Below are positions 22,624-46,906 of a DNA stretch of 64,000 nucleotides, piece by piece. A program made the position numbers and the translations under genes. The notes under the pieces are model-generated. The model saw nothing but the letters and a program-made list of their open reading frames with translations, was not told the origin of the DNA and did no database searches. Origin of the DNA: a virus (Duplodnaviria > Heunggongvirae > Uroviricota > Caudoviricetes); IMG/VR virus record IMGVR_UViG_3300037312_000757; one strand, 5' to 3'. Position 1 is the first letter of the stretch. Each line of letters starts with the position of its first letter.

Positions 22624-22651
22624 CCAGCTTTCGCCAGCGCCCTTAAAATCT

Positions 22652-22727: not shown

Positions 22728-22728
22728 A

Positions 22729-25895: not shown

Positions 25896-25955
25896 CACCT
25901 CATACAACAAAGGCTGACCCGCCGTGGGTCAGCCTTGTGTCAGTAGCAGCATAGC

Positions 25956-26798
25956 TTACGCGCTCTGCGTGCCTTCGTCCTTCTGCTTCTTCGTGCTGGC
26001 CTTCTTGACAGCAGCAGTCGTGCTCTTCGCCGCCGCCTTGGCCGCAGGGGTGTTCGCAGCTTCCGCCGCGGTTTCAGCAGCTTGGGCTTCACCGTTTGCT
26101 TCACCAGCTGCCGTGATCGCTTGTTCTTCAGCGCTCAGACCGAAGTGCTTGGCGAGTTCGTCCGCGCTCGACTGTACCGTCGTGTCGCCTGCCGACGTTT
26201 CCGAGGTTTCGGTCACGTTCGTTTGCGGTTCAGCTTGCGTGTCAGTCGTGGGTGCTGCCGGCGCTTCAGGCTGCGTAGCAGCTTCCGTCTTCTTGCCCTT
26301 CGACTTACCGCCCGTCGCTTTCTTTGCGGCCGGCTTGGCTGCCTTTTCCGTCTTTTCCTTTGCAGCTTTCGCCGGTTTCTCGGCCTTTTCAGCCTTGGCG
26401 GGCTTTTCGGCCGGCTCTTCCTTCGCGTCCGCCTTCACCGCAGTTTTCATCAGCGCGGAGTCGGCGACGATCAGCGTGGGCGTTGCGTCAGTTGCATCGT
26501 CCGGCAGTTCGCGCAGCGTGAACCAGCCGTAGCCTTCGTCGTTGAACAGGAACGACGCGCCGAGATCGGGACGGGTGTACTTGAGCTCTTTCAGGTAGCC
26601 AGCGGGAATTTCGACCAATGTCGCGCCGCTTTCAGCTTTTGCAGTGCGTGCCTGCAGGTTCTTTCCCGACACGCGGTAGCTGGGCCGCAACGCCAGGTAT
26701 TCGACACCACCGCGCTTCTTGATGTTCACACGAAGACGCGTGATGCCTTGCAGCAGTTCAACTGCCGCGCCATTGAATTGCAAAACCAACGAGGTCAT
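25956..26798 (-). CDS. Lys/Ala-rich histone-H1-like (AKP-repeat) DNA-binding-type protein
   Basis: ~110-aa N-terminal domain followed by ~170 aa of KAEKPAKAAKEK.../AAKAAAKSTTAAVKK low-complexity tail. GGAGAA RBS. GC-rich. Confidence 0.65.
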   Translation of the reverse strand: MTSLVLQFNGAAVELLQGITRLRVNIKKRGGVEYLALRPSYRVSGKNLQARTAKAESGATLVEIPAGYLKELKYTRPDLGASFLFNDEGYGWFTLRELPDDATDATPTLIVADSALMKTAVKADAKEEPAEKPAKAEKAEKPAKAAKEKTEKAAKPAAKKATGGKSKGKKTEAATQPEAPAAPTTDTQAEPQTNVTETSETSAGDTTVQSSADELAKHFGLSAEEQAITAAGEANGEAQAAETAAEAANTPAAKAAAKSTTAAVKKASTKKQKDEGTQSA

Positions 26799-34518: not shown

Positions 34519-34571
34519 ATCTCTCTCCGTGGTTTACCGTAGCCAGATGATACTTTCACTTGAACCAAGAA

Positions 34572-34880: not shown

Positions 34881-35140
34881 TCAAATGCAAGCTTGCAAGC
34901 AATAGCATCGGCCATCGACTCAAAGTAGATGCCGTTGCAGAACTGGGGATTGAAATACCGACTCGCCAAGCTGTCGAACCATTCCTTGTTATCCCGCACT
35001 AACTTGACTGCGGCCGTATTGTAGCAGCGCAATACACAAGCAGGAGTCCAGCAAATCGTGGTAAGTTTGAGTCTGCGTACTTCTTTCACATTAGGACGTT
35101 CATCAATGAAATCCTCTACTGTCATTATTTTAAGCGCCAT
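34877..35140 (-). CDS. paralog family A small protein
   Basis: 87 aa ending ...MADAIACKLAFE. Confidence 0.5.
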   Translation of the reverse strand: MALKIMTVEDFIDERPNVKEVRRLKLTTICWTPACVLRCYNTAAVKLVRDNKEWFDSLASRYFNPQFCNGIYFESMADAIACKLAFE

Positions 35141-35417
35141 CGACTAGCCATGTAAGTTTGAACATCAGTGCAACATTTTCATCAGTGAAGAACCAATACT
35201 TGTCGCTTTTTCGTTGAGCGTTTCGCCCTGTTCTTTGCACCAGTTGCGCATATTCTTTAATGCCCCACGGGTCCAAATTCCTGACACGTAGAACAATCGT
35301 GACATTGTGTTCCAGCAAGCGTCTGGCGAGTTCTGGACGATGTGCTGGGTTTTGATAGCGCACGTAATCAAGAACAGGAATTACAGCGCTGCCATCGTCG
35401 TTTAATGTGATTGCCAT
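35130..35417 (-). CDS. paralog family A small protein
   Basis: 95 aa ending ...ENVALMFKLTWLVDGA. Begins 10 nt after an intrinsic terminator. Confidence 0.5.
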   Translation of the reverse strand: MAITLNDDGSAVIPVLDYVRYQNPAHRPELARRLLEHNVTIVLRVRNLDPWGIKEYAQLVQRTGRNAQRKSDKYWFFTDENVALMFKLTWLVDGA

Positions 35418-35427
35418 ATGGTGAAAA

Positions 35428-35445
35428 GGGGAACTTTTGTTCCCC
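35428..35445 (-). terminator. intrinsic terminator
   Basis: GGGGAACaaaaGTTCCCC plus TTTT on the minus strand. Immediately precedes the ATG of the gene at 35417. Confidence 0.55.
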
Positions 35446-35460
35446 TAGTGTAGCACAGCA

Positions 35461-35480
35461 CTGGCAACCTTAGTTGCCAG
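35461..35480. promoter_or_regulatory. CTGGCAAC-ctta-GTTGCCAG perfect palindrome
   Basis: Same 8-mer half-sites as at 13453. Near-copy at 802-828 and single half-sites at 9880-9950, 15170-15200, 15920-15940, 36550-36560, 58845-58915 and 59560-59600. Confidence 0.45.
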
Positions 35481-35487
35481 TTGTGGC

Positions 35488-35847
35488 TTAGTGACGCGTG
35501 TTCAGCTTACCCTTCGACATGTCGGAGTAGAAGTGCTTCGTCACGTCGGCCACGAGATTCGGGCACAGCGTCATTTGCATCGCCGGCGAAGCAACCGGGG
35601 TGTACACATCACCACCATCCGTGCGGCCACCGATCTTTTCTGCCCACTTTTCCATCACGGCGCCCAGCTCGCTCAGGAAGCGCGTCTTGAACTTCAGCTT
35701 GCCGTTACGCCGACCCCAGAAGTTGACCAGCTTGCCGTCGATCTTCGCGATGCCCCAGATTTTGTCATTAGAAGCAGCACCGCCTGCGTTGCCACGTGCG
35801 CCTTCGTTGTAGAAGTGACCAAACTTGAGGATTTCGACGTTTGCCAT
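35488..35847 (-). CDS. paralog family B protein (GRRxGKLxFKT core)
   Basis: Start MANVEIL. Shares M.VEI...GH...G.RG..GG.SKD.V.G.A......GRRGG.L.FKT with 39657 and 45470 genes. Conserved 5'-UTR hairpin upstream. Confidence 0.6.
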   Translation of the reverse strand: MANVEILKFGHFYNEGARGNAGGAASNDKIWGIAKIDGKLVNFWGRRNGKLKFKTRFLSELGAVMEKWAEKIGGRTDGGDVYTPVASPAMQMTLCPNLVADVTKHFYSDMSKGKLNTRH

Positions 35848-35880
35848 GTTCATTTCTCCTTAAAGTTGTTGCAGCGTTTT

Positions 35881-35899
35881 GTTTGCTGCGTTGCGTCTA
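35881..35899 (-). promoter_or_regulatory. conserved 5'-UTR hairpin of paralog family B mRNAs
   Basis: GCAGCgttttgtttGCTGC between the promoter repeat and the RBS. Equivalents at 40083-40097 and 46014-46034. Confidence 0.4.
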
Positions 35900-35958
35900 C
35901 CATGTATCACATTCTACATTCATTTGGTAGGCAGTCAACAACTAAATGAACATTTTTG

Positions 35959-36186
35959 TCATTCTTTTTGCGCCAGCTTTACTTGCTGTTTGTAGCGTTC
36001 CTCCCACGCTGCCATCGGCCATGCTACCGACAGCAAGCAAATCAAGCAGAAGCCCTGGAACACACGAACGCCGCTGTCGCCGACGTACCATGAGCCCCCA
36101 ACGCCCCAGATCATTTGGCTGACGCCACACAGCATCGCAATCCACGACGTTGCGATAACAACTCCCAGCAAGATTTTGAGCTTCAT
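35959..36186 (-). CDS. small membrane protein
   Basis: 75 aa with two TM helices. RBS GGGGAA. Confidence 0.5.
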   Translation of the reverse strand: MKLKILLGVVIATSWIAMLCGVSQMIWGVGGSWYVGDSGVRVFQGFCLICLLSVAWPMAAWEERYKQQVKLAQKE

Positions 36187-36214
36187 TCTATTCCCCTATA
36201 CAGTTGTTGTTCGA

Positions 36215-36553
36215 TCACTTTTCCCAAGACCAGTTCGCGTTATGCAAGCGGGCGGCCACAATGCTGGCATCGCTGTAACACACCAAATAATGATGTCCTT
36301 CTTCTTTGACGACTAGTTGAGGATTTGAAGAGCACTGCACGTTCACGGTCGTTGCGCGTTGAAAGTCTTCCAGCGTGCGATGGCGTCGCCGTATGTCAGG
36401 AATCTGCGCATACAACATTTCGGTCACAGTCGGGTAGTAGCGCTCAGCCGCATCAGCTTGGATGCTCTTGCAGGGGGATAGACCGTATGTCATCGAGACT
36501 GAATAGGGATACGTATCCCTATTCAGTGCCGTGGTGGCAATTACCGTAATCAT
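36215..36553 (-). CDS. hypothetical protein (contains 30-bp perfect palindrome)
   Basis: 112-aa ORF with weak RBS. GTTGCCAG motif 15 nt upstream of the ATG. Confidence 0.5.
   Translation of the reverse strand: MITVIATTALNRDTYPYSVSMTYGLSPCKSIQADAAERYYPTVTEMLYAQIPDIRRRHRTLEDFQRATTVNVQCSSNPQLVVKEEGHHYLVCYSDASIVAARLHNANWSWEK
36498..36527. repeat. perfect 30-bp palindrome ACTGAATAGGGATAC|GTATCCCTATTCAGT inside a CDS
   Basis: Read directly from the sequence. Lies within the coding region of the 36215..36553 gene. Confidence 0.7.
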
Positions 36554-36620
36554 GTTGTTTTAGTTGCCAGAGATTTACAAACTTCCGATGCTAACTTCAT
36601 CGCAAGCACGGCGTCAACGT

Positions 36621-36782
36621 TTAAACCCGCGTGGCTATGATGGGATTGCCATGTATGCCGAAGTCGCCTTCGATGCCAAGTGCCTTGAAACCGGCTTCGA
36701 TCAATGCCTCTTGCTCATCTCCTACTTCGACAGTCATCTTGAAACCATCGTCGAATTCGACTTCGTATTCTTGCAAGCTCAT
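36621..36782 (-). CDS. small acidic protein (53 aa)
   Basis: Below the track cutoff. GGAG 7 nt upstream, directly after a promoter repeat. The plus-strand ORFs 36564..36827 and 36631..36903 are shadows. Confidence 0.45.
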   Translation of the reverse strand: MSLQEYEVEFDDGFKMTVEVGDEQEALIEAGFKALGIEGDFGIHGNPIIATRV

Positions 36783-36842
36783 GTCATGCTCCGGTTGTTA
36801 CCATGTTCAAATGGTAACATCAAATGAAATGCCAATCAAGCA

Positions 36843-37049
36843 TCAAATGATTTCGATCTCGTCACGTTTGACAGTACAAGCCGTATTGTTGGCTTCAAAG
36901 TGATACTCGCCGTTGCCCTTATCGATCAGCAGATCGCTCACCGTACCCTTCTTCAGCACGTCGCCGTTATCCAGTTTGATACGCTTCTTGAGCTTGGCTT
37001 TGAGCTTCGTATTGCTGGTGTACGCACGGACCATGTCGCTCAGTTTCAT
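36843..37049 (-). CDS. hypothetical small basic protein
   Basis: 68 aa. RBS AAAGGAGAAC. Confidence 0.5.
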   Translation of the reverse strand: MKLSDMVRAYTSNTKLKAKLKKRIKLDNGDVLKKGTVSDLLIDKGNGEYHFEANNTACTVKRDEIEII

Positions 37050-37079
37050 GTTGTTCTCCTTTAACCAAGAATGCGCCGC

Positions 37080-37364
37080 TTAACGCAGGTGCTCGAGGCC
37101 AGGGTGCTCGAATGCGCGTTCGAAGATCCAGCATTCGCCGTCTTCACGACGGTAGGTGCCAACGTGCTCTTCCGTCGACCCATGCTTGTCTTTCACGTCG
37201 CCAACATAGTAATACAGGAACAAGCCGTGCGTAACCCCGGGTTCGTTGCCTTCCTCGTCGTAAGAGCGCTTGACGATGTTCACGCCAGGGAATGTGTCAG
37301 CAACCAGTTCATCGAATGCTTGCGCCGTCAGTTTACCGCTAAACAACATTCCAATACGGGGCAT
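37080..37364 (-). CDS. hypothetical protein
   Basis: 94 aa. RBS AAGGAGAAC. Promoter repeat upstream. Confidence 0.55.
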   Translation of the reverse strand: MPRIGMLFSGKLTAQAFDELVADTFPGVNIVKRSYDEEGNEPGVTHGLFLYYYVGDVKDKHGSTEEHVGTYRREDGECWIFERAFEHPGLEHLR

Positions 37365-37467
37365 GCTTGTTCTCCTTGTTGTTTATCATGTTCAAAGAAT
37401 ATAGCCAAATGAAACAACAATCAAGCGGAAAAGCCACCGAAGTGGCTTTCTTTGTTTGCGTTTTCGC

Positions 37468-38025
37468 TTATGCTTGCTGCACAACCTTGCGTGCGGCAAG
37501 ATGATATGCGTTGGCGGCGTTAATCATCACCAGCATCGTCAGGCCGCCGAAGCTCAGTGCTTCATGATGTGCAAACACCAACACACCTTCCAGCAGGATC
37601 GTGAAGCCCCAAGCTTTGTAAACGTTGCCACACCACTTTTCTGCCCAGCTTGCAACCGACGGAGCCGAGAACATCAGCGCCGCAGCAACCAGAATCCAGA
37701 GCAGCGGTTGTTGAGCTGCTTCGTGGTGTGCGATCACAAAACTTGCAATCGGGAGAAAACCACTTGCGATCGCAGCAACGAACTGGCCGATCGTGCGCTT
37801 TTGTGCAGCGTTGATCTTGATCGGGGCGGCCGTCGGTTGCTTGCGCGAACCAGTGCGCTTCGACGCTTGCGGTTGTGCAACCTTCGGCTTATCAACTGCC
37901 GGTTTTGCGTCCTTCAGCGCTTGTGCAGCAGCACGACGAGCACGGCTACGAACAGCGCTGGGCGACATCGACAATTGCTTGTCCGACTTTGCTGCCAGTT
38001 CCACCACGTTAGCTGCGTTTGCCAT
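37468..38025 (-). CDS. protein with basic Lys/Ala-rich N-terminal region and C-terminal membrane domain
   Basis: Trimmed to MANAANVV. The C-terminal ~100 aa are hydrophobic. Confidence 0.6.
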   Translation of the reverse strand: MANAANVVELAAKSDKQLSMSPSAVRSRARRAAAQALKDAKPAVDKPKVAQPQASKRTGSRKQPTAAPIKINAAQKRTIGQFVAAIASGFLPIASFVIAHHEAAQQPLLWILVAAALMFSAPSVASWAEKWCGNVYKAWGFTILLEGVLVFAHHEALSFGGLTMLVMINAANAYHLAARKVVQQA

Positions 38026-38093
38026 GTTTGCTTCTCCTTTGTTGTTTACCATGTATCAAATGATATGCTCAGGTGAATGTGGTTGCAAGCGCT

Positions 38094-38396
38094 TTATGGA
38101 ATAAATGTGGCGAGTGGTTTGAGAAAGAACGCGCCTAATACATCAAGCTGCGTGTTGGCGAAACCAACCTGGAACCAATGGTAGCCCAGATAACCATCAA
38201 CGAGAATGTCTACCTCCACGTTGTCGTTTTTGTAGCGGATATTCGTCTCAGTTTTCTCATACCAATCTCGGTCGAGATCAAGATCACAATAAGTCTTGAA
38301 GAACTCGTCTACTGCCACTTTTGTTTGTGGAAGATCGTAAGAAATCAGCATTCGGTTTTCTGGTATCGGTATGTTGGGTACCGGCCCAAAATTCAT
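38094..38396 (-). CDS. hypothetical protein
   Basis: 100 aa. ATGA-coupled to the upstream gene. Confidence 0.5.
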   Translation of the reverse strand: MNFGPVPNIPIPENRMLISYDLPQTKVAVDEFFKTYCDLDLDRDWYEKTETNIRYKNDNVEVDILVDGYLGYHWFQVGFANTQLDVLGAFFLKPLATFIP

Positions 38397-38674
38397 GTTT
38401 TAGTAACCGCGTTGAGGATCATGTCCAGCGCGTGCAGGAATTCATCACTCTGCATGCGTTCAGAACCGCGCAGGAGCCTCACCGTGATGATGGCGTTTTC
38501 AAGATCGCTGTTGGTATAGTCAACCCCATTCCACAGCGCGATGGCGCCGTCTTGCGTTTCGTGGGGTTTGCTTTGATGGCCGCAGAAATGGCATTTCAGA
38601 AAAAACTTGCCAATCTGGTGTACGTGAATGGTCTCTTGATTACCGCACTTGCAGGCTTTGAAGGATGAGGACAT
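38393..38674 (-). CDS. zinc-binding small protein
   Basis: CKCG...CHFCGH. RBS AGGAG. Confidence 0.5.
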   Translation of the reverse strand: MSSSFKACKCGNQETIHVHQIGKFFLKCHFCGHQSKPHETQDGAIALWNGVDYTNSDLENAIITVRLLRGSERMQSDEFLHALDMILNAVTKT

Positions 38675-38739
38675 AGCATACTCCTAAGACAGTTGCCATA
38701 TCCCCATACTATTGCAGAAAAATTATGGCATCAAGAATT

Positions 38740-39216
38740 TTACTTGATGTGTTGCTTGATTGCATTCACCAATGCGACACGCATGGCATTGCGATGCGCT
38801 TCAGCGGCTTCAGCGTCGGTGCGAGCGTCTTCGACCGTCGCATTCTCAAGTGCCGTGATCGCATTCATGATGTCTTCGGGAATGTCGAACTTCTTCGCCA
38901 TATCCACCTTTGCTTTGGTGATCTCGGCTGCGATCTGACGCAGTTCATCCGGCCCACCAACGGTGAAGTTAACAGTCACATCGCTTTCCAGCGAGCCATA
39001 TTGAATGAAGCAGTTAAACACACCTGCCTTGATGATTTGTGCGCCGTAACCACCGTCCGACATGACAGCTTTACATTCGCCCAACATATGCACACCTTCT
39101 GCACTCCAGATACCACCCATTTGTGGGTGGTCGGGTTTGATCAGTTCACCATGTTGCCGAATGTACTGATACAGGGCGTTGAAAACTTGCGCCAGTTGAA
39201 TGTTATGCACTTTCAT
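38740..39216 (-). CDS. hypothetical protein
   Basis: Trimmed to MKVHNIQ after CGAGGAGAAC. Confidence 0.55.
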   Translation of the reverse strand: MKVHNIQLAQVFNALYQYIRQHGELIKPDHPQMGGIWSAEGVHMLGECKAVMSDGGYGAQIIKAGVFNCFIQYGSLESDVTVNFTVGGPDELRQIAAEITKAKVDMAKKFDIPEDIMNAITALENATVEDARTDAEAAEAHRNAMRVALVNAIKQHIK

Positions 39217-39277
39217 CTTGTTCTCCTCGTCGGTTACCATGTTCTTATGGTAACTTCACCTGAACCTGGCTACAAGC

Positions 39278-39538
39278 CTAATGCACGACATAAAGATGGT
39301 TGAACATGCTGTCGTCAAACAGTTCGTCACGTTCTTGGCATTCACGTGCGAAATTGAACCGCACAAGCATACACAGATACAGCACATCATCTGCTGTTAG
39401 CTTGAAGTGAGAACCATCAAATGGCAAGCCAGAAATGCGAAGGAGTCGAAGAAGCTCGTCATCTGTGAGGCGATGATCCCGTTTCACGTTGCGTACTTCA
39501 ATCGACCCCACAAACCGTCCGTCTTCTCGTGTCAGCAT
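39278..39538 (-). CDS. hypothetical protein
   Basis: 86 aa. RBS AGGAAAC. Confidence 0.5.
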   Translation of the reverse strand: MLTREDGRFVGSIEVRNVKRDHRLTDDELLRLLRISGLPFDGSHFKLTADDVLYLCMLVRFNFARECQERDELFDDSMFNHLYVVH

Positions 39539-39611
39539 AACGTTTCCTGATCGTCTTAATGTTCACATTGTTGTTTCATATGAACATTAAGTCAAGCAGG
39601 AAGCCAGTTGG

Positions 39612-39642
39612 CAAAAGGGCCCGGGATTGCTCACGGGCCTTT
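39612..39642. terminator. bidirectional intrinsic terminator
   Basis: AAAAGGGCCCGggattgctcaCGGGCCTTTT. Confidence 0.6.
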
Positions 39643-39656
39643 TGCGCATCACGGAC

Positions 39657-40058
39657 TTATTCCGCTGCGGCAGCCTTCGCCGGCTTCGTCGAACGCGTGT
39701 TCACCTTGCCTTCCTTCTGCGCTGCGGCGAAGCCCTTCGCGACGTCTTCCATGATCGTCGGGCAGGTCTGCTTGATCGCCTTCGCCGACGTGATGTCCAC
39801 GTACTGGATGCCCTTCACGTCCTTGCCTTCGAGCTTCAGCGCGAACAGTTCGAGAGCTGCGTCGAGCTCCGTGCGCTTCTCGGTCTTGAAGCGCAGCTTG
39901 CCACCACGGCGACCGTAGAACTTGACGAGGCGCTGTCCCTTGCCTGCGCCGATGTAAGCCAGACCCCAGACGCTGTCCTTCGACGGCTTGCCGCCCTTCT
40001 CGCCGCGTTCGCCATCGACCAGTGCGTGTCCCAGACGGATGATTTCGACTTGTGCCAT
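39657..40058 (-). CDS. paralog family B protein
   Basis: MAQVEIIRLGHALVDGERG...GRRGGKLRFKT. RBS GGAGAAG. 5'-UTR hairpin GCTGCgttttGCAGC. Confidence 0.6.
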   Translation of the reverse strand: MAQVEIIRLGHALVDGERGEKGGKPSKDSVWGLAYIGAGKGQRLVKFYGRRGGKLRFKTEKRTELDAALELFALKLEGKDVKGIQYVDITSAKAIKQTCPTIMEDVAKGFAAAQKEGKVNTRSTKPAKAAAAE

Positions 40059-40183
40059 TGTTCACTTCTCCTTTAAAAGTTAGCTGCGTTTTGCAGCAGT
40101 ACCTACCATGTGTCAAATGATAGGATCACCTAATTACCACGTCAACACCTTTTTCAGAAAATTTTTGACTTTTTGAACGAGGT

Positions 40184-40240
40184 TACTGGTTTACTAACAA
40201 GGTTCAGAACTGGTAAGGCTTTCCCTGAAATTACTGGTTA
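40184..40240. repeat. three direct (T)TACTGGT(T/A)A iteron-like repeats
   Basis: ttactggttt / aactggtaag / ttactggtta spaced ~23 bp apart in a noncoding gap next to an AT-rich TTTTCAGAAAATTTTTGACTTTTTGAA tract. Confidence 0.4.
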
Positions 40241-40533
40241 CCAAAGGTCAAATAAGCATTCAACGCATCGTTGTATTTTCCATACACTGTTGCAAGAATT
40301 CCACCAAATACAGTCTTGGTTGCCTTGATCTTATTGACGGCCTGCCAATTGTGAAACGCCTTGGTATCAATGGCGGAGCGGTCGAACAACACTATGTACC
40401 TCGAAGCGTCAAATTTCTTATTGGCGTTCGCCATTCTCGAATAAAACTGCCGCACAGCAAGCTCAGCTTTGCTGTGAAGCTGGTCCTCAGGCATCAGGAA
40501 CCAAGTTTCAAACTGACGTATGATTGCAGTCAT
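40231..40533 (-). CDS. small protein, family A-like
   Basis: Trimmed to MTAIIRQ. Ends ...ALNAYLTFGNQ. Confidence 0.45.
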   Translation of the reverse strand: MTAIIRQFETWFLMPEDQLHSKAELAVRQFYSRMANANKKFDASRYIVLFDRSAIDTKAFHNWQAVNKIKATKTVFGGILATVYGKYNDALNAYLTFGNQ

Positions 40534-40534
40534 G

Positions 40535-40864
40535 TCAGCACCAAGTAAAGTGGAACGCGAGTGCGTCGTTGAAGTTCTCGAACAGTGCAACACGATTGAT
40601 AAACCGTAGCGACCATCCGCCAGTGCAGTTCTCTTTCGCCCATCGATAGATGGGACTTGTTCTAGCTTTGTCTGTCTCCAAACGCAACGGTTTTGCCTTG
40701 GTTGCCAAGTCGAACATAACTAGATCACCAACAGCATATGCCGGTGCGAAGTCATGCTGTTTTTGCACCAACTCGAAGAGCTCCTGGCGCATTCTCGAAC
40801 TACCACATTGGATGAGATCTGGGTACGCAATCCAGTCATCTATTTTGAAAAGGCGTGCGGACAT
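40535..40864 (-). CDS. paralog family A small protein
   Basis: 109 aa ending ...FNDALAFHFTWC. Confidence 0.5.
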   Translation of the reverse strand: MSARLFKIDDWIAYPDLIQCGSSRMRQELFELVQKQHDFAPAYAVGDLVMFDLATKAKPLRLETDKARTSPIYRWAKENCTGGWSLRFINRVALFENFNDALAFHFTWC

Positions 40865-40865
40865 A

Positions 40866-41156
40866 TTAGAACCAGGTCATGTAGACAAGCAGAGCGTCAG
40901 TGTACTCTGCAAAGAACATGGCTTCATTGGAAATGTTCAGGAAATGACGACCTGTCATGTTCCCTTCAAACCATTGACGCAATGTTGACCACTGCTCGTA
41001 GATTGGGTCTGGCTCAAAGCCGTATATCATGTACACCGGTACGAAATGTGCGACCTTCCACACGTGGTCGATCACATAATGTCTACCACGAGACCCAACC
41101 ATTTCTGAGTGTGGCTCGGCTACCCAGTCTTCAACCTTGAGTAGCCGTACCGTCAC
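40866..41156 (-). CDS. paralog family A small protein
   Basis: 96 aa ending ...YTDALLVYMTWF. GTGA junction. Confidence 0.5.
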   Translation of the reverse strand: MTVRLLKVEDWVAEPHSEMVGSRGRHYVIDHVWKVAHFVPVYMIYGFEPDPIYEQWSTLRQWFEGNMTGRHFLNISNEAMFFAEYTDALLVYMTWF

Positions 41157-41476
41157 AGTTTGTCACCGTGTGTCATGTAAAACTTGATCGCGTCGATCTC
41201 ACGTTCGAAGAACACTACGAACACGCCCGTACCGTTGCGTGAGCGGGCGATCATCTCCTGACGACCTTCGCACTGGCCATCCAACCATTCAACCAGTTCC
41301 GTCATCGCCCACTTGCGTTTGTGGTTGAATGCGATAACGAGAGCGCAAGCGATCGGGAACGTCATCGACTCAACACCGTTCAGGAACCAGCTGCCAGCAT
41401 GTTCGACATCACCGTACAGGTGATCGAGTTTGCCAAGCTCGTTGAAGACGTGGGGTTTGAAGATTTGTACGTTCAT
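41153..41476 (-). CDS. paralog family A small protein
   Basis: Trimmed to MNVQIF (ATGA junction). Ends ...EIDAIKFYMTHGDKL. Confidence 0.5.
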   Translation of the reverse strand: MNVQIFKPHVFNELGKLDHLYGDVEHAGSWFLNGVESMTFPIACALVIAFNHKRKWAMTELVEWLDGQCEGRQEMIARSRNGTGVFVVFFEREIDAIKFYMTHGDKL

Positions 41477-41673
41477 TCGGCAAGGTATGGACTGAACCAC
41501 AACCCCTCGTGTTGAGCGTTGAACTTACCTGCCTTGTACATTGCACCAGCTTCGTTGTACCCGACGAACGCGTCAGCCGGGTTAGGGCTTAGCCATTGCT
41601 CACCAGCCTTGCCGGTGTAGTACAGTTTTTCGCCAGTTTGCTTGTTTTCTGCCACTACACCATGCGTACTCAT
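41473..41673 (-). CDS. hypothetical small protein
   Basis: Trimmed to MSTHGVV after GGGAGAA. Confidence 0.45.
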   Translation of the reverse strand: MSTHGVVAENKQTGEKLYYTGKAGEQWLSPNPADAFVGYNEAGAMYKAGKFNAQHEGLWFSPYLAE

Positions 41674-41733
41674 TATTATTCTCCCGCACAAAGGTTATTG
41701 GACTTCAGATGATACGTTCATATGAACATACAG

Positions 41734-42006
41734 TCAACCCCAAGTCAGCAACCACAACATTGCTTCATTTTCGTCTTCGAAGTAGATAGCAGGTGGGATA
41801 AAGTCAACACCAGGGTTTGTGCCTACCTGCTTCTTTATTTGTTCGTGCCGCCAATCAGGACATACTGCGTAAAAGTGAAGATGATGGTCGGTCAACAATA
41901 CTGATGATGGCTTGAACAGGACATTGCCCATGTTGCGCGACATCCAATTCTGCACTCGGTTTTCACCATACATCTCGATGAAGTCAGGGAACGAAACCAG
42001 CTTCAT
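41734..42006 (-). CDS. paralog family A small protein
   Basis: 90 aa ending ...ENEAMLWLLTWG. Confidence 0.5.
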   Translation of the reverse strand: MKLVSFPDFIEMYGENRVQNWMSRNMGNVLFKPSSVLLTDHHLHFYAVCPDWRHEQIKKQVGTNPGVDFIPPAIYFEDENEAMLWLLTWG

Positions 42007-42007
42007 G

Positions 42008-42253
42008 TTACTGACCCTTCTTACCCAAGCGAATGGTCATCGTCTCCCGTAATTTTTCAACTTCGAAGGTTTCGCCCTCGAAATAGCTGATGAAATCCTC
42101 CGGAAGCTGTTGCAAGACGAGGTCTGTTTCGTAGACCGAAGTGTACGGCATGAAACCACCACGACCACCCTCTTCGGTGGTGATGACCTGGATGACTGCG
42201 TCTTCAGGAAATTGATCGAGCCACTTTTGCAATTCGAGTCGCGTCACACTCAT
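42008..42253 (-). CDS. hypothetical small protein
   Basis: 81 aa. RBS CAGGAGAAC. Promoter repeat upstream. Confidence 0.5.
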   Translation of the reverse strand: MSVTRLELQKWLDQFPEDAVIQVITTEEGGRGGFMPYTSVYETDLVLQQLPEDFISYFEGETFEVEKLRETMTIRLGKKGQ

Positions 42254-42259
42254 CTCGTT

Positions 42260-42305
42260 CTCCTGTCGTTACCATGTTCATATGGTAAGTTCAAATGAAC
42301 AATCA
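42260..42305 (-). promoter_or_regulatory. conserved promoter/operator/leader repeat copy
   Basis: ttaccatgttcatatggtaagttcaaatgaacaatcagtcaagcgc. Confidence 0.55.
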
Positions 42306-42602
42306 GTCAAGCGCAAGATAGAATTGCATAGCATCAGAATGATTCTGGAAATACGCAAAACCAAGTCCGTCCAATGCATACTGCTGAATGCCTTGGTTCT
42401 TCAGAATTTTTTCGTAAACACTGGGCGCTTCAATAGCAGACGCGACAACGAATTCAATCGTTATCTTGTTTTGGCGCTCCAATCGTCCTATGTCAATGCG
42501 GCGTTTTTTGCGCGTCTCGCGTGATGCACGCTGCTTCAGAAAATTGCCCTTGAAGTCGTACTCGACGCCGACAAAATCTTCAACGGTAAAGAGCTCAGCC
42601 AT
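42303..42602 (-). CDS. paralog family A-like small protein
   Basis: 99 aa ending ...HSDAMQFYLALD. Confidence 0.5.
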   Translation of the reverse strand: MAELFTVEDFVGVEYDFKGNFLKQRASRETRKKRRIDIGRLERQNKITIEFVVASAIEAPSVYEKILKNQGIQQYALDGLGFAYFQNHSDAMQFYLALD

Positions 42603-42662
42603 GACGATCCCCTAGCATAATATCTAGGGGAAGTGTAACTGTAACAGGCAAGCTCGTAAAGC

Positions 42663-43169
42663 TTACGCCTTCTGCTGTAGTGCTTCGAGGACCAGCGGGT
42701 GAATGTACTTTGCGACTTTCACTTCCCAGTTGTCGAAGCCGACAAACCCGCGCACCGCTGATGAACTGATACGAGTTTTGTCTTCGGGCGGGATAACGAA
42801 AACATGGTCGATTTCGCTTTCGATATCCATGTTGAACCCTTGAATGTCTTTCTCGTAATCGAAATCGACACCGTTCCGAATACCGCGCATGATTGTGGTA
42901 ACGCCCAAGCGCTTCGCCACGCTGACGGTGAATTCATTTTCGACAACTACAAACTTCAGCTTTGCGAACAGTTCAGGTGTCAGAGAATCAGCTAGTACAC
43001 GACGAGCCAGGTCTTCACGCTCAACAGCATTGAACATGCCCTTCTTTGCTGGATTGTAGGCGATTGCAAAGTAGACTTCATCGAATGTCTTGCAAGCTCG
43101 TTCGACCATCCACTCATGGCCACGGGTGATGGGGTCGAATGACCCCGTTGTCATACCAATCGTGTACAT
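42663..43169 (-). CDS. coaD: phosphopantetheine adenylyltransferase (CoaD/PPAT)
   Basis: TGSFDPITRGHEWMVERA ... RGIRNGVDFDYE ... ISSSAVRGF aligns along the full length of CoaD (T/HxGH motif and ISSS motif). TAATG-coupled to coaE. Confidence 0.8.
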   Translation of the reverse strand: MYTIGMTTGSFDPITRGHEWMVERACKTFDEVYFAIAYNPAKKGMFNAVEREDLARRVLADSLTPELFAKLKFVVVENEFTVSVAKRLGVTTIMRGIRNGVDFDYEKDIQGFNMDIESEIDHVFVIPPEDKTRISSSAVRGFVGFDNWEVKVAKYIHPLVLEALQQKA

Positions 43170-44404
43170 TAGATCCAACGCCCCCATTTCTTGATGATGT
43201 TGTTTACGTTGCGCTTCGCGTTGTCCTCGAATTGCGAGAAGTGCGGCGAATGGAAAATCCGTTCACGATCAGCAAACGTCTTCATTGCCACGACTCGACC
43301 ACGAGCAAATGTGATGACGTCGTATTGGTCTTTGAATTCTTGATACACCGCTTCGTCGAACGCATTAGCTTCTGCTTCAGTTCCGCCGAGCATCATCAAG
43401 TCCACGTCCAAGAACAGTTCGCAATCAGCTTTCAGTTCAGGATTCGAAAGCAAGTATGGAGACGTGATCGCATGGCCTTTAGTCGCCATGATGAATTCGG
43501 CAACCGTGGCCAGTGTCGGTATACCAGCTTCAATCTCGAAGCCCAGTGCTTCTGGCAGATGCTCCCTGAACTGTTCCATCATGAACTTGACACTCCACGC
43601 TTCGTTGAAGGCGTACAGGTCCTTGTAAGCGCTGTAGACAGCGTCGTGATAGATGATTGCCAGTCCCGCAATGCCCGGATAGTTAAACTTTTCGACGTTG
43701 TTCATGAACCAGCGGTACATCTGGCGTGGATGATCAGCGTTATGCCAGTGCCGACTCGTATCGAAATACTGCTTCATTGCATTGTCGAACAGAACACCAG
43801 CTTCCTTTTCGTGACCGTAGAATGCACCCTGGAAAAACAAACGCAGATCTTGCAGCGAGATACGATCAGCAATGCGCTTCGCCTCGTCCTCCAGATCCTC
43901 GAGAGAAATGTTGGTATCAACCGTGTCGTCGGCCATTGCGATCTTGACACGCGTGCTCAGTTGCGCTGCGCGGATGCGTTCGATCTTCTCCTGCGTGAAG
44001 CCATCTCGCGCCATCACACGCTGCATCTGCACGTCATCTGCGCAGTGACACGTGATGACAAAGTCATACTTGCCGCTCTTGCCCATTTCGTACAGAAGCG
44101 GGAACTCCATCACCAGATGTTTCTTGTAGTCGTAGTTCGCCAGCTTCCAACGCATTGTGTCCTTGGTCAGGTCTTCCAACCACAGACGATCGGCCGAGTT
44201 GTTGAACACGATGTCCGACACCTTCTTGCGGTCGGACGTGCCGAAGCGATTCTCGAGATCAAGCTTGAACGCTTTGTCGTTGTAGAGGTCGCGAACCATG
44301 TCGTCGATGCTTGCGTGCTCGTAGTTTGCCGCCAAGTGTTTCAGCAGCAACTTCGTGAATGTTGTCTTGCCACAGCCGATGTTGCCAGTGATGGCTACTC
44401 GCAT
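43169..44404 (-). CDS. coaE: dephospho-CoA kinase (CoaE) fused to a C-terminal HD-domain phosphohydrolase
   Basis: N-terminal MRVAITGNIGCGKTT P-loop and CoaE-like blocks (IDDMVRDL, FPLLYE, DDTVDTN). C-terminal HWHNADHP...IIYHDAVY HD motif. RBS GGGAGA. Confidence 0.8.
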   Translation of the reverse strand: MRVAITGNIGCGKTTFTKLLLKHLAANYEHASIDDMVRDLYNDKAFKLDLENRFGTSDRKKVSDIVFNNSADRLWLEDLTKDTMRWKLANYDYKKHLVMEFPLLYEMGKSGKYDFVITCHCADDVQMQRVMARDGFTQEKIERIRAAQLSTRVKIAMADDTVDTNISLEDLEDEAKRIADRISLQDLRLFFQGAFYGHEKEAGVLFDNAMKQYFDTSRHWHNADHPRQMYRWFMNNVEKFNYPGIAGLAIIYHDAVYSAYKDLYAFNEAWSVKFMMEQFREHLPEALGFEIEAGIPTLATVAEFIMATKGHAITSPYLLSNPELKADCELFLDVDLMMLGGTEAEANAFDEAVYQEFKDQYDVITFARGRVVAMKTFADRERIFHSPHFSQFEDNAKRNVNNIIKKWGRWI

Positions 44405-44473
44405 GAATGGTCTCCCGTAAATGAGGCCATTCTATATTCGTTTGTGACTACCGTAAAGTCTATCAACAAATTG

Positions 44474-44499
44474 AAAAGGCTCCCAGTTGGGAGCCTTTT
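44474..44499. terminator. bidirectional intrinsic terminator
   Basis: AAAAGGCTCCCagttGGGAGCCTTTT. Confidence 0.6.
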
Positions 44500-44501
44500 C
44501 A

Positions 44502-45071
44502 TTACCACGGAAAATCAGCCTTCTTGATCTTGACTAACCGACCATCAGGGTGCCACCAAACGACACCTTCAATCGGCTTATCACGCAGATATTCCATGAT
44601 GCCATCAAACGTGCGTGGGCAGTCTTCCAAGATATCCTTGCCGTGCGGGACAAGAATGTGCTCGGTCAAGCCTTCCGGATTAGCACCGTGCCGCGTCCCA
44701 ATCTTGGGGCCACAAGCCTCGTAAGTGCCATCAGGAATGCCATCAGCATACTTACCCTTCAAAGCCCATTCAACAGCTTCGCGAATCCACTTCGAATCCG
44801 GACCATCAGTAGGTACCCAGCCTGGCCAGTGACCAGACTTGGGATCCGGGTTAGGTTGGGCAGGGATGAAGTCCACGGGAGGGGTTCTCCCAGCCTTAGC
44901 GTCGTAACGCTTAAAGACTCGACCATCCTTTACCAACACGGCCACGCCATCCCACTTACGAGTGGCGTAACCTTCCCCAGAAACAACCCATTCAGTTCCG
45001 GGCGTAACTTCGTCACGAACCTTACGGTCACCATCGTAGTTACGAACAAACAACGAAACGGTCTTCTTCAT
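44502..45071 (-). CDS. minimal nucleotidyltransferase of the ligase superfamily (KxDG), RNA/DNA-ligase-like
   Basis: Start MKKTVSLF after AAGGAG. Motif I RKWDG, motif IV EGVVWW, motif V LVKIKK. Confidence 0.5.
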   Translation of the reverse strand: MKKTVSLFVRNYDGDRKVRDEVTPGTEWVVSGEGYATRKWDGVAVLVKDGRVFKRYDAKAGRTPPVDFIPAQPNPDPKSGHWPGWVPTDGPDSKWIREAVEWALKGKYADGIPDGTYEACGPKIGTRHGANPEGLTEHILVPHGKDILEDCPRTFDGIMEYLRDKPIEGVVWWHPDGRLVKIKKADFPW

Positions 45072-45193
45072 GTACTGCTCCTTAAAAGTGATGAGATAGT
45101 TTTCGAGTCCCATCAACGCCACCTTTAAGGCTTACTGCAACTTCCTTTACTGCTAAGCCATATTGTATATATGGCTCATACTACAGTCAAGCA

Positions 45194-45409
45194 CTACTCG
45201 CTAGGGCAATCGGCATAAGGTGCCAAATCAATTCGAATCTTGCCGTTTGTTGCCACTACATGTTCGTAGACCTCTCCACTTTGCGTGAATTTCCGCAAGC
45301 GTTCAGGATAGAACTCGGGTATTCTTGCGCATAGCCATTCGGTAGCCGCCACGCAACCCATCCTACGTCTTTTCGACCCCCATTCTTCAATGGCTGCATC
45401 TAAAGTCAT
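45194..45409 (-). CDS. hypothetical small protein
   Basis: 71 aa. RBS GGAG. Confidence 0.45.
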   Translation of the reverse strand: MTLDAAIEEWGSKRRRMGCVAATEWLCARIPEFYPERLRKFTQSGEVYEHVVATNGKIRIDLAPYADCPSE

Positions 45410-45469
45410 GATTACTCCGGAAATGACGATGGCTAGGTTTTACCCTAGCCATCTTGCTATGCCATCAGC

Positions 45470-45976
45470 TTACGCTGCCAGCTTTGCTGCTTGCGCTGCC
45501 GCGATCGAAGCTTGCGTCGGGAACGCGAACACCTTCTTCGGGTCCGGAGCCTTGTACTTCGGAGCCTTCGGGGCCTTTGCTGCCTTTGCTTCGGCGCCCT
45601 TCGCCGTTTCACGCGTGTTCAGCTTCTTGTTCGTCGATGCCTTGTGGAACATCTTGCCAAGCGTGTCTGCGAAGTCTGCACCCAGCACTTCGTCGCGTGC
45701 TGCTGCGTCGAGATCCTTGTACGCGAAGCCCTTGTCCTTGCCCGTCAGCTTCACGTCCGTGTAGAACGCGAGGACCTTGTCCATGTCTGCCTTCTTGTAC
45801 GTCTTGAAGCGCAGCATGCCACCGCGACGACCACCGAACGTTGCCAGCGTCGTCACCACGCCGAAGTTGATCAGCGCAATACCAAACACGCTGTCCTTCG
45901 ACGGTGCGCCACCGTTGTCACCACGCTTGCCAGCAACCAGTGCGTGACCAACACGAACGATTTCGATCTTTGCCAT
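45470..45976 (-). CDS. paralog family B protein with AKAPKAPKYKAPDPKK histone-like tail
   Basis: MAKIEIVRVGHALVAGKRG...GRRGGMLRFKT. 5'-UTR hairpin GCAGCGctttgtcttCGCTGC. Confidence 0.6.
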   Translation of the reverse strand: MAKIEIVRVGHALVAGKRGDNGGAPSKDSVFGIALINFGVVTTLATFGGRRGGMLRFKTYKKADMDKVLAFYTDVKLTGKDKGFAYKDLDAAARDEVLGADFADTLGKMFHKASTNKKLNTRETAKGAEAKAAKAPKAPKYKAPDPKKVFAFPTQASIAAAQAAKLAA

Positions 45977-46142
45977 GTTCATTTCTCCTTAAAGTTGTTT
46001 ACCAGTTTTGTTTGCAGCGCTTTGTCTTCGCTGCGTCGTCTACCATGTCGCTATATTATGTTCATCTGAAACTTGAATCAACAGCTAAATGAACAAATTT
46101 TCAACTTTTTTCATCTGTTGTGGCAACACAACATGGTTCAAA

Positions 46143-46595
46143 TTATCTGCAACCGTAGTCGTATGCTACCAAACGTCCATGACGATTGAATCCTACTTGA
46201 CCTCCGTCAACACTCCAAGTCCAGTCAGACTCGCCAGGAGGCGTACCCAAGTGCTCTTCTACTTCTCGTACTGAAGCATGGCGAACGCATTCCATAAAGA
46301 CTATGGCAATGTCACCAACATAGACAAGACGTGTTCGCGCGTATTGCACATACTGGGGATCACCATAATTCTCACCGTTGGAAACGGATCCTTCCCAGTC
46401 ATTATCAGCAACACCATCCCAGTTCATGGGAATCTTCACGACATAGTTGGTGAAAACGAATACCATACGGTTGCGGCCGCACAAAACATCCGGAGTTCTG
46501 GTTGCATAACGCAACGCCAAGTTTTTCACTGTTTCATTGACTTCCGAATCATGAAATTGAATCCAGTCGTCAAGATTTGAAATATCAGCAGTCAT
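46143..46595 (-). CDS. hypothetical protein
   Basis: 150 aa. RBS GGTGGTGA. Confidence 0.55.
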   Translation of the reverse strand: MTADISNLDDWIQFHDSEVNETVKNLALRYATRTPDVLCGRNRMVFVFTNYVVKIPMNWDGVADNDWEGSVSNGENYGDPQYVQYARTRLVYVGDIAIVFMECVRHASVREVEEHLGTPPGESDWTWSVDGGQVGFNRHGRLVAYDYGCR

Positions 46596-46906
46596 ACATA
46601 TTCACCACCAAAGCGGAAGTAGAACGCAAGTGCATCAGCGTGTTTCAAGAACATGTAGATGCCAATACGGGTGATTGCAGCGTATTCCGTGCGCACCCCG
46701 GGCACGTCAGACACATTGTCCATGCACCAGTCAATCATGTCACACCAGCCGTTAAGCGACGTGGCTTCTTTGCCGGTGATATGCACGACATAGATGGTGT
46801 CAGGACTACGCATGCCACGTATGGCCTTTCGGATCTGTGTCCAATACTCCTTCTCGAAGCCATGCACGAAGGCGTCGATATCCTTGATCTCGGTTACGCT
46901 AGACAA
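46592..46906 (-). CDS. paralog family A small protein (start uncertain, possibly TTG)
   Basis: Ends ...HADALAFYFRFGGEYV. The track N-terminus overlaps the upstream gene. TTG preceded by GGGGGA. Confidence 0.4.
   Translation of the reverse strand: MSSVTEIKDIDAFVHGFEKEYWTQIRKAIRGMRSPDTIYVVHITGKEATSLNGWCDMIDWCMDNVSDVPGVRTEYAAITRIGIYMFLKHADALAFYFRFGGEYV

Follow-up and report, generated by a model that had tools for sequence, protein, structure and literature searches.

Three genes, named B1, B2 and B3 in coordinate order, are found on the minus strand of the window, the whole stretch of 64,000 nucleotides that was analysed and whose source contig measures 524 kb (Table 1). As the first-pass annotation had noticed, all three encode the pattern M.VEI..GH....G.RG..GG.SKD..G.A...GRRGG.L.FKT. 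For B1 and B3, the starts adopted there (35847 and 45976) agreed better with the homologs (MA.VEI) and with the Shine-Dalgarno (SD) spacing than did the first in-frame ATG. The likeness had been described as a shared N-terminal domain of about 60 residues; that region is indeed shared, but the similarity is not confined to it and extends over the full length (37-43% identity), including a C-terminal K.NTR motif. It was concluded that B1-B3 are true paralogs. B1 belongs to a type-1 subfamily (FWGRRNG motif; pI 9.7, net charge +7), B2 to a type-2 subfamily (FYGRRGG; pI 9.8, +10) and B3 to a type-3 subfamily (FGGRRGG; pI 10.0, +15), so that all are strongly basic, with the charge concentrated in residues 1-62. 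These three subtypes are conserved across the family (hereafter family B), and this genome carries one of each.

Table 1. Coordinates of the B1-B3 cassettes and of the other genes discussed in the text
Feature	Position	Strand	Details
B1 gene	35488..35847	-	119 aa from ATG 35847; first in-frame ATG 35853
B1 Shine-Dalgarno	35856..35861	-	AAGGAG, inside CAACTTTAAGGAGAAATGAAC; 8 nt before ATG
B1 leader hairpin	35871..35889	-	GCAGC-AAACAAAAC-GCTGC (9-nt loop)
B1 promoter, sigma-70-type	35905..35938	-	TTGACT 35933-35938, 16-nt spacer, TAGAAT 35911-35916; conserved initial sequence CATGGTAGAC downstream; A-rich element upstream, to about 35965
B1 3' hairpins (two)	35423..35481	-	fold z = -5.7
Second B1 3' hairpin	35423-35446	-	GGGGAAC-AAAA-GUUCCCC + UUUU, intrinsic-terminator type
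B2 gene	39657..40058	-	133 aa
B2 leader hairpin	40083..40097	-	GCTGC-AAAAC-GCAGC
B2 promoter	40117..40174	-	TTGACG 40140-40145, 17-nt spacer, TATCAT 40117-40122
B2 upstream A-rich element	40159-40174	-	AAAAAGTCAAAAATTT
B2 3' hairpin	39609..39648	-	GC-rich, right behind the stop codon; fold z = -3.9
B3 gene	45470..45976	-	168 aa from ATG 45976
B3 leader hairpin	46014..46034	-	GCAGCG-AAGACAAAG-CGCTGC (9-nt loop)
B3 promoter	46053..46110	-	TTGATT 46076-46081, 17-nt spacer, TAATAT 46053-46058
B3 upstream A-rich element	46095-46110	-	AAAAAGTTGAAAATTT
B3 3' hairpin	45428..45453	-	GAUGGCUAGG-GUAAAA-CCUAGCCAUC, 10 bp; fold z = -4.0
RNA ligase gene	44502-45122		phrog_14301, E 2e-82
'AKP' gene	25956..26798	-	280 aa
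'AKP' terminator	about 25904-25935

B1, B2 and B3 are separate single-gene expression cassettes. Their promoters are of the consensus type and are preceded by A-rich elements found only at the B genes; a strong SD, in a ribosome-binding site (RBS) of the form AACTTTAAGGAG, lies before each gene and strong 3' hairpins lie behind it. Each leader combines the promoter repeat of the window with a small GC hairpin and with the element (C)TTTAAGGAGAA (TTCTCCTTAAAG on the plus strand), as had been annotated.

The Lys/Ala/Pro-rich tails ascribed to two of the genes were recovered unequally: B3 possesses a K/A/P-rich tail of 46 aa, that of B2 is limited to 13 aa (K/A) and B1 has none. The B3 tail contains a conserved PKYKAPDPKKVFAFPT motif, a short conserved non-repeat motif within it being PKYKAPNPKKVFAFPT. 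It was modelled with pLDDT values of 78-92 and is thus not simply low-complexity sequence. Measured over the 120 best homologs, tails have a median length of 1, 10 and 13.5 aa in the three subtypes. A further gene, unrelated to family B and here called 'AKP', had been credited with a tail of about 170 residues typical of histone-H1-like proteins. The gene exists, but its basic K/A/E/P-rich stretch covers about 57 residues (116-172, net +9) and overlaps the last helix of the N-domain, which is globular and rich in beta structure (residues 1-126, pLDDT about 85). Behind it the sequence turns acidic for 78 residues (173-250, net -13) and basic again for the last 30 (251-280), and the whole protein has a net charge of +2 and a pI of 8.5. 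Residues 128-237 are predicted to be disordered, with low-confidence C-terminal helices behind them. The RBS of this gene resembles TTTAAGGAGAA, and the gene has its own terminator. In two more distant relatives, P0192 and the L002 ORF, the tail is acidic; the long 'AKP' tail is an insertion, for the most part acidic, that is specific to its lineage.

Histone-H1-like bacterial proteins such as AlgP and Hc1 are characterized by long Lys/Ala/Pro repeats. When this class is taken as strongly basic proteins with at least about 100 aa of such repeats, the B tails (0, 13 and 46 aa) fall outside it, as does the 'AKP' protein with its 57-aa basic stretch, acidic 78-residue block and net charge of +2. 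The likeness comes down to short Lys/Ala/Pro-rich stretches in the B3 tail and in 'AKP' residues 116-172; long H1-like tails are no trait of family B. Since the family tails are mostly short, the B3 tail holds a conserved motif and the 'AKP' protein is near-neutral, the proposed histone H1/AlgP relationship is not supported.

Structure prediction pointed to another fold for the shared N-domain. An AlphaFold2 model of a family-B protein (pLDDT 90.5, pTM 0.72) displayed an antiparallel sheet packed against a helix, which is the WGR topology. When it was compared with the PDB by Foldseek, the top 18 matches were all PARP1/PARP2 chains including the WGR domain (probability up to 0.96). In BFVD, the two best matches both bear the name 'WGR domain-containing protein': the first belongs to Agrobacterium phage Atu_ph07 (probability 1.00, target-normalised TM 0.61), the second to an uncultured Caudovirales phage (probability 0.99).

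At the sequence level, B1-B3 remained below the gathering threshold of Pfam WGR (PF05406, 22 bits) and gave no Pfam match, to WGR or otherwise, even at E <= 1; hhalign of family B against a single PARP1 WGR sequence yielded a probability of 1.5%. Nevertheless, WGR was the Pfam family matched most by family-B members (5/71, best E 0.002). A profile search with family B led to a sister family of proteins of about 110 aa, to which it is linked by hhalign with 99.5% probability (E 4e-22). The sister-family alignment A5 reached at best 21.3 bits against PF05406, just below the cut-off, and one close relative bears the JGI label 'predicted DNA-binding WGR domain protein'. Furthermore, one of the larger distant matches hit WGR with an E value of 4e-7, and in the distant match P0169 (487 aa) a family-B-like module is fused to an ATP-dependent DNA ligase domain. 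In the alignment, FGGRRGG is in register with PARP1 SWGRVGT. The Gly-Arg pair (G51 and R52 in B3) is invariant across family B; the central Trp is retained in type 1 (B1) only, with B2 carrying Tyr and B3 carrying Gly at this position. A glycine-rich insertion, G.RG..GG, lies within the WGR-like domain of the B proteins, and a helical C-terminal subdomain follows, at the end of which the K.NTR motif is located. On these structural and profile comparisons, the N-terminal 80 or so residues are assigned to a WGR-type sheet-plus-helix fold. The trio, distantly related to the nucleic-acid-binding WGR domain, represents a new subfamily within a known fold rather than a histone-H1-like system.

Family B comprises at least 183 homologs (E <= 1e-3), all unnamed and metagenomic; the largest contig that carries one measures 523,837 bp. 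Its relatives in IMG/VR lie on viral contigs of 87-480 kb, most of them of 277-480 kb; none was found among 185,579 GTDB species genomes, and searches of family B against Pfam, PHROG and NCBIfam gave no match. The family is so far confined to metagenomes and viral contigs, a phage-type distribution, and the genome carrying B1-B3 looks like that of a huge phage.

The minimum-energy structure of each B1-B3 leader is its hairpin. The arms are swapped in B2 relative to B1 and B3, and the B3 ortholog of a sister phage has GCAGTGC-AAAGAAA-GCACTGC at the equivalent site. The hairpins had been placed right next to the SD; this position has to be corrected, as they end 11, 11 and 25 nt upstream of GGAG in B1, B2 and B3, respectively, and are nearer the predicted transcription start. 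They begin about 14-16 nt past the start predicted from the -10 hexamer, and 13-15 nt after the conserved CATG (5-8 nt in several orthologs). No leader matched the Rfam 15 covariance models at E <= 1.

Taken singly, the window hairpins are thermodynamically unremarkable (fold z -0.7 to -1.4), so their support is comparative. They might be functionless short GC palindromes, inherited with duplicated leaders or arisen by chance in A/C-rich leaders. This explanation, which we consider unlikely, draws on these z values, on stems of merely 4-7 bp, on the five further GCAGC/GCTGC hairpins within coding regions of the window and on the close relatives without a hairpin. Against it, 20 of 29 family-B leaders (about 70%) possess a hairpin, compared with 3 of 33 (below 10%) other leaders sharing the promoter type, one of these three being a mis-called B2. 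The Fisher p value is about 1e-6, which is optimistic given that orthologous leaders are non-independent samples. Over 24 leaders the mean fold z is -1.0 (t = -3.2), and for 12 of them an equally GC-rich perfect stem appeared in fewer than 5% of dinucleotide shuffles. The median distance from CATG to SD is 45 nt in family B vs 14 nt in other genes. Moreover, pairing is kept across at least eight different stem sequences and with arms swapped between orthologs, which rules out simple inheritance of one sequence. Thus, the leader hairpins are real and specific to family B. Their conservation in orthologs is nonetheless partial: beside the 20 related leaders that have them, 8-9 do not. Loss from orthologs, which the first-pass annotation had named as refuting its idea, is thereby half borne out. 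The hairpin is absent from L012, L022, L036, L040, L041, L042 and L045; in L001 a stem of 3 bp is left. L045 is the closest B1 ortholog (protein 87% identical) and L036 the closest B2 ortholog. A whole distant clade lacks the hairpin in every leader, although the protein is present.

Because pairing is kept while stem sequence and orientation differ, the hairpin would operate at the RNA level. As regards its role, autoregulation, the suggestion of the first-pass annotation, is possible. T4 gp32, gp43 and RegA regulate their own mRNAs in operator fashion, and the B proteins could likewise bind their own leader hairpin, by which translation would be repressed or mRNA decay altered. The extended hairpin leader is peculiar to family B among genes with the same promoter type and is retained in several phages and in each of the three paralog types, whose divergence is ancient, with GCWGC stems in most copies. 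In addition, the B proteins are predicted nucleic-acid binders, and at B1 and B2 a bound protein could reach the ribosome-binding region from the hairpin 11 nt before GGAG. However, loop length (3-14 nt) and loop sequence, stem sequence and the distances to the start and to the SD (about 5-30 nt) all vary, which is unusual for a specific operator. The loss of the hairpin from L036 and L045, where the proteins are intact, and from the distant clade also speaks against it. We therefore regard a specific operator as rather improbable and less likely than a passive role. The hairpin most likely acts passively, in mRNA stabilisation or RBS insulation, which would resemble the 5' hairpins of the T7 gene 10 and ompA leaders; the leader is ordered as small GC hairpin, A/C-rich spacer and AACTTTAAGGAG RBS. 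The distance from the predicted start, greater than in the classical type, is a point against a 5'-terminal stabiliser.

The inverted repeats, which sit just downstream of the promoters, might otherwise be DNA operators, the B proteins being sequence-specific MolR-like WGR transcription factors. A transcription-factor role has been proposed for a few jumbo-phage WGR proteins by Iyer et al. (PMC7824862). We hold this to be very improbable for family B: the half-sites flip (GCAGC..GCTGC vs GCTGC..GCAGC), their spacing ranges from 3 to 14 bp, and certain stems (GTAGAC, GCGCG) have nothing in common with the rest in sequence, a poor fit to a dimeric double-stranded-DNA operator. Furthermore, the presence of three monocistronic cassettes of high expression points to amounts that are stoichiometric rather than catalytic.

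Our overall explanation, to which we give an even chance, is that the three cassettes encode abundant early nucleic-acid binders of WGR fold, with a leader hairpin that is most likely passive. Paralogy, fold class, charge, phage-type distribution and cassette layout are regarded as established. The proteins are further predicted to bind nucleic acid; host RNA polymerase would transcribe their genes early in infection, giving large amounts of product. WGR domains of PARP1-3 recognise DNA breaks and P0169 fuses a WGR module to a ligase domain; the most likely ligand, by this analogy, would therefore be an end or discontinuity in nucleic acid, or failing that DNA in general. The RNA ligase gene follows about 350 nt downstream of B3, and the same proximity in L001 and L036 may reflect a conserved gene order among related phages. 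It is conceivable, if quite improbable, that the trio forms a huge-phage-specific chromatin-like or break-marking system, possibly with the RNA ligase and self-tuned via leader stem binding. The targets recognised by the abundant early proteins would then be nicks, ends or junctions, in nucleic acid of the phage or of the host.

Annotations of stand-alone WGR proteins exist for both bacteria and jumbo phages, and we know of none whose function has been tested. Family B, so far found only in very large phages as a conserved trio apparently built for very high expression, offers small basic proteins as a tractable entry point, together with an RNA element in which compensatory changes are already seen in natural variants. 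Recognition of breaks or ends would bear on genome protection or processing in huge phages; were break marking with self-tuning true, it would give a stand-alone WGR protein a defined role for the first time and provide the first RNA feedback loop based on WGR.

Among known systems, the T7 gene 10 leader, which combines a 5' hairpin with TTAACTTTAAGAAGGAG, and the ompA 5' UTR hairpin belong to high-expression leaders, and their stabiliser hairpins stand at or within a few nt of the mRNA 5' end. The B leaders resemble them in the small hairpin near the 5' end, the unstructured A-rich spacer, AACTTTAAGGAG before the start codon, the strong promoter and the own terminator; they differ in that the hairpin begins about 14-16 nt past the predicted start.

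In PARP2 bound at a break, Trp151 makes a stacking contact with the 5' ribose, and the 3'-side phosphate is bound by Arg153 (PMC6294510). The invariant Gly-Arg of the B proteins aligns with the G-R of W-G-R in PARP1, but no counterpart of the 5'-phosphate-binding Tyr201 of PARP2 could be mapped onto family B, sequence identity is 10-14%, and the B proteins lack a catalytic or regulatory domain. Bacterial ATP-dependent DNA ligases that carry a WGR domain at the N terminus have been described (PMC7470946); the fusion in P0169 and the position of B3 recall them, whereas the B proteins stand alone and the neighbouring gene encodes an RNA, not a DNA, ligase.

The small stand-alone WGR proteins (PF05406) have the same size class and architecture as the B proteins. 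The Atu_ph07 protein (A0A2L0UZX9, 99 aa), from an Agrobacterium jumbo phage, likewise shares their fold and comes from a very large phage. The FWGRRGG..FK and K..KGY-type motifs of these proteins are those of the sister family, whose profile is linked to family B. Compared with them, B1-B3 fall below the Pfam threshold, add the G.RG..GG.SKD insertion between the first two strands, have a C-terminal helical module that is longer and closes with K.NTR, replace Trp by Tyr or Gly in two of three subtypes, and occur as a conserved subtype trio.

The three ORFs assigned to family B by the first-pass annotation (B1, B2 and B3, numbered in coordinate order) were all present in the window. Their products had been described as sharing an N-terminal domain of ~60 aa; the quoted motif was found, but the similarity was not restricted to the N-terminus, as the proteins are 37-43% identical over their full length, including a C-terminal K.NTR motif. 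For B1 (35847) and B3 (45976), the second ATG is the likely start codon, because homologs start with MA.VEI and an AAGGAG stands 8 nt before it. The coordinates of the genes and elements discussed here are collected in the following table.

Coordinates of the genes and sequence elements in the window
Feature	Coordinates	Strand	Description
B1	35488-35847	-	family B, type 1
B2	39657-40058	-	family B, type 2
B3	45470-45976	-	family B, type 3
B3 tail motif PKYKAPNPKKVFAFPT(Q/A)ASVA	about 45515-45562		residues 140-155; modelled with pLDDT 78-92
'AKP' gene	25956-26798	-	280-aa protein, unrelated to family B
Promoter repeat, examples	15595-15616, 18467-18488, 41716-41737, 42289-42310, 57507-57528	-	consensus match
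Promoter copy with lengthened palindrome	39520-39626	-	just past the B2 3' hairpin; fold z = -5.9
Three-tRNA cluster	22407-22804	-	Pro-TGG, Ala-TGC, Val-TAC
RNA ligase gene	44502-45122	-	between B2 and B3; phrog_14301, E 2e-82; Pfam RLIG1, 27.8 bits
411-aa protein	43169-44404	-	dephospho-CoA kinase domain at N-terminus; C-terminal half without assignment
Cytidylyltransferase-like protein	42663-43187	-	
Enzyme run, B2-B3 interval	42663-45122	-	order identical in sister phage contig L036
Small-ORF paralog family	34201-35417, 40535-42602, 46592-47195	-	~85-130 aa; C-termini are A..FKLTW / FYLTWG variants

Searches of Pfam, PHROGs and NCBIfam with the window proteins gave nothing significant, and a profile built from B1, B2 and B3 found 183 unnamed homologs. 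Three subtypes were distinguished among these, of which the window holds one each: type 1 carries FWGRR and is tailless, type 2 carries F[YF]GRR with a ~10-aa tail, and type 3 carries F[GSN]GRR. The tail motif PKYKAPNPKKVFAFPT, continued by (Q/A)ASVA, is conserved in 10 of the 46 type-3 proteins, with the homologs P0007, P0052, P0084, P0087, P0101, P0116 and P0119 among its carriers; it looks more like a docking or partner-binding peptide than a low-complexity tail.

Structure prediction, which had been proposed for the shared N-domain, gave a confident model, and fold searches with it pointed to the WGR fold. The AlphaFold2 model of B3 (pLDDT 90.5, alignment of 71 sequences) consists of four strands plus a short helix, followed by a long helix (residues 5-78) and more helices. 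When compared with the PDB by Foldseek, the best 18 matches were all PARP1/PARP2 chains with a WGR domain, at probabilities up to 0.96, none of them reaching E <= 0.001. Among predicted viral structures, the best two matches were annotated WGR proteins, one of the ~490-kb jumbo phage Atu_ph07 of Agrobacterium (probability 1.00) and one of an uncultured phage (0.99). WGR was also the Pfam family most often touched by family-B members (5/71). Furthermore, an exhaustive profile search reached a sister family, whose ~110-aa proteins show the motifs FWGRRGG..FK and K..KGY and which was aligned to family B by hhalign with a probability of 99.5%; its members score just below the WGR threshold, and one bears the JGI name of predicted DNA-binding WGR domain protein. 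The invariant G-R of family B stands in register with the G-R of the PARP1 W-G-R; the hhalign alignment of family B to a single PARP1 WGR sequence, which shows this register, has a probability of 1.5% and serves for the motif register only. Sequence-profile searches of the PDB with family B and with the sister family gave nothing significant. PDB entry 2ra8 presumably contains a WGR domain, for which a literature look-up gave no confirmation. From motifs and models together, we conclude that family B is a divergent WGR-like subfamily, set apart by an insertion rich in glycine and by a C-terminal module of helices; it was filed as a WGR variant, not a member, because it falls below Pfam's threshold.

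The separate 'AKP' protein had been credited with a ~170-residue histone-H1-like/AlgP tail. This description did not hold: a Lys/Ala/Glu/Pro-rich part of ~57 residues is followed by 78 acidic residues, the whole protein is near neutral, and it is unlike AlgP. Its residues 1-126 form a conserved, beta-rich N-domain (model pLDDT ~85), residues 128-237 are predicted to be disordered, and the C-terminal helices were modelled with low confidence. Only five homologs were found, all of 176-184 aa, four with short basic tails; acidic tails occur in the fifth (P0192) and in an extra ORF of L002, an 87-kb viral contig. The 'AKP' gene has the TTTAAGGAGAA ribosome-binding site in common with family B, and its own terminator. 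In L002 (3007-3402 and 4705-5556), a family-B gene is followed 1.3 kb downstream by an 'AKP' homolog; in the window, the 'AKP' gene and a family-B gene are ~9 kb apart. This linkage could be functional or merely syntenic.

Each of the family-B genes of the window has its own promoter with near-consensus -35 and -10 boxes, preceded 5' of the -35 by an A-rich element that is absent at the other window promoters. The promoter is followed by the conserved initial sequence CATGGTAG, a small GC hairpin, an A/C-rich spacer and (C)TTTAAGGAGAA. These leaders far exceed those of neighbouring genes in length and contain a strong Shine-Dalgarno sequence (SD). Strong hairpins stand directly after the three stop codons (fold z-scores, z, -3.9 to -5.7), that of B1 being a canonical terminator. 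AACTTTAAGGAG resembles the ribosome-binding region of T7 gene 10, TTAACTTTAAGAAGGAG, and the T7 gene 10 leader also starts with a hairpin. From sequence, we infer that this anatomy is that of genes made in large amounts, abundance and timing being predicted.

The sigma-70-type promoter repeat is present in ~30 copies in the window, its pattern giving 48 matches against 4.9 expected. The extended consensus of the minus-strand copies is TTGAC-N5-GTTCA-NN-TGAAC-N-TAnCAT-nTGAa-CATGGTA(A/G)AC, in which the first transcribed bases are conserved. The promoter spacer contains the palindrome GTTCAnnTGAAC, a candidate operator inside the promoter at which a dimeric regulator would act; the family-B promoters have degenerate versions of it. 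In the copy past B2, the palindrome is lengthened to ~14 bp (TTAATGTTCATATG / CAATGTGAACATTAA); Rfam miRNA-family matches there were weak and meaningless.

The leader hairpin had been placed between promoter repeat and ribosome-binding site in each leader, which was confirmed, and right next to the SD, which was not, since the distance from its end to the GGAG downstream is 11, 11 and 25 nt in B1, B2 and B3. None of these three hairpins stands out by itself (z -0.7 to -1.4), and nothing in Rfam matched the family-B leaders. Homolog leaders were gathered from 47 loci and assessed by shuffle and control-leader tests, which were preferred to pair counts on a hand-built alignment, circular for hairpins chosen as hairpins. 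In the CATGG-promoter clade, most leaders carry a GC-rich hairpin of 4-7 bp, starting 5-18 nt past the conserved CATG, with at least eight stem sequences (GCAGC/GCTGC, GCTGC/GCAGC, GCAGCG/CGCTGC, GCAGTGC/GCACTGC, GCAG/CTGC, GTAGAC/GTCTAC, GCGCG/CGCGC and GCGC/GCGC). Compensatory changes were observed for B3 (GCAGCG..CGCTGC against GCAGTGC..GCACTGC in the sister-phage ortholog) and for B2 (GCTGC..GCAGC against GCAGC..GCTGC in a B2-type relative). The mean fold z across 24 leaders was -1.0 (t = -3.2). A hairpin was found in 20 of 29 family-B leaders, whereas only 3 of 33 other leaders with the identical promoter pattern had one, one of these three being a mis-called B2 (Fisher p ~1e-6, the orthologs not being independent); the median CATG-to-SD distance was 45 nt in family B and 14 nt in the other genes. 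Conservation in orthologs extends to the majority of the related clade, but not to the leaders of L012, L022, L036, L040, L041, L042 and L045, and the orthologs nearest to B1 and to B2 are among the hairpin-less ones; L001 is down to a 3-bp stem, and every leader of a distant clade with a different promoter and a short leader lacks the hairpin.

The leader hairpin is judged to be a genuine RNA element peculiar to family B, with an uncertain role. Because it varies in position, in loop length and in sequence, a passive RNA structure that would stabilise the mRNA or insulate the ribosome-binding site is favoured over a specific operator. Autoregulation through the hairpin is the less probable rival, for which the family-specificity of the element speaks. 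Other candidates were rejected: a double-stranded-DNA operator fits poorly, half-site orientation and spacing being variable; the B2 hairpin, flagged by a scan as an attenuator/terminator, shows no more than a weak T-run, and A-rich sequence stands after the other copies; an RNase III site would need longer stems; and the B2 hairpin is similar in shape to lambda boxB (5-bp stem, 5-nt A-rich loop), but loops are of 3-14 nt elsewhere.

The window genes are mostly small, and nearly all of them are encoded on the minus strand. The small ORFs ending in A..FKLTW or FYLTWG variants are presumably the 'family A' of the first-pass annotation. The B1, B2 and B3 proteins are present in a protein collection on a JGI contig of 523,837 bp, and the IMG/VR viral contigs with family-B relatives measure 87-480 kb, mostly 277-480 kb. 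No close relative was detected among 50,697 deposited phage records (megablast and tblastn, with the region and B3 as queries), and no family-B relatives in a scan of 185,579 GTDB species genomes. For these reasons, the window probably comes from an uncultivated huge phage. The CoaE-like neighbour had weak Acinetobacter phage matches only.

B1, B2 and B3 have a pI of 9.7-10.0, with positive charge mainly in the WGR-like part. In PARP2, the WGR domain by itself recognises 5'-phosphorylated breaks, its Trp stacking on the 5' ribose and its Arg binding the 3'-side phosphate (PMC6294510). In bacteria, ATP-dependent DNA ligases occur with a fused WGR domain (PMC7470946), and a distant relative, P0169, is such a fusion of a WGR-type module. 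In addition, a few jumbo-phage WGR proteins have been put forward as candidate transcription factors in a comparative study (PMC7824862). Given this charge and these precedents, our best inference is that the three proteins would bind nucleic acid, perhaps breaks or ends. The first-pass observation was largely right once corrected, and its interpretation partly so: the suggested set of nucleoid-remodelling or DNA-coating proteins is plausible as a nucleic-acid-binding family, with a WGR-like fold instead of H1-like tails as the means. B3 lies ~350 nt upstream of the RNA ligase gene, a proximity seen again in L001 and L036, which may reflect only the shared gene order of related phages. Family B is an uncharacterised, divergent branch of a known fold, occurring in huge phages, and is unusual for its conserved trio and for a leader of its own.
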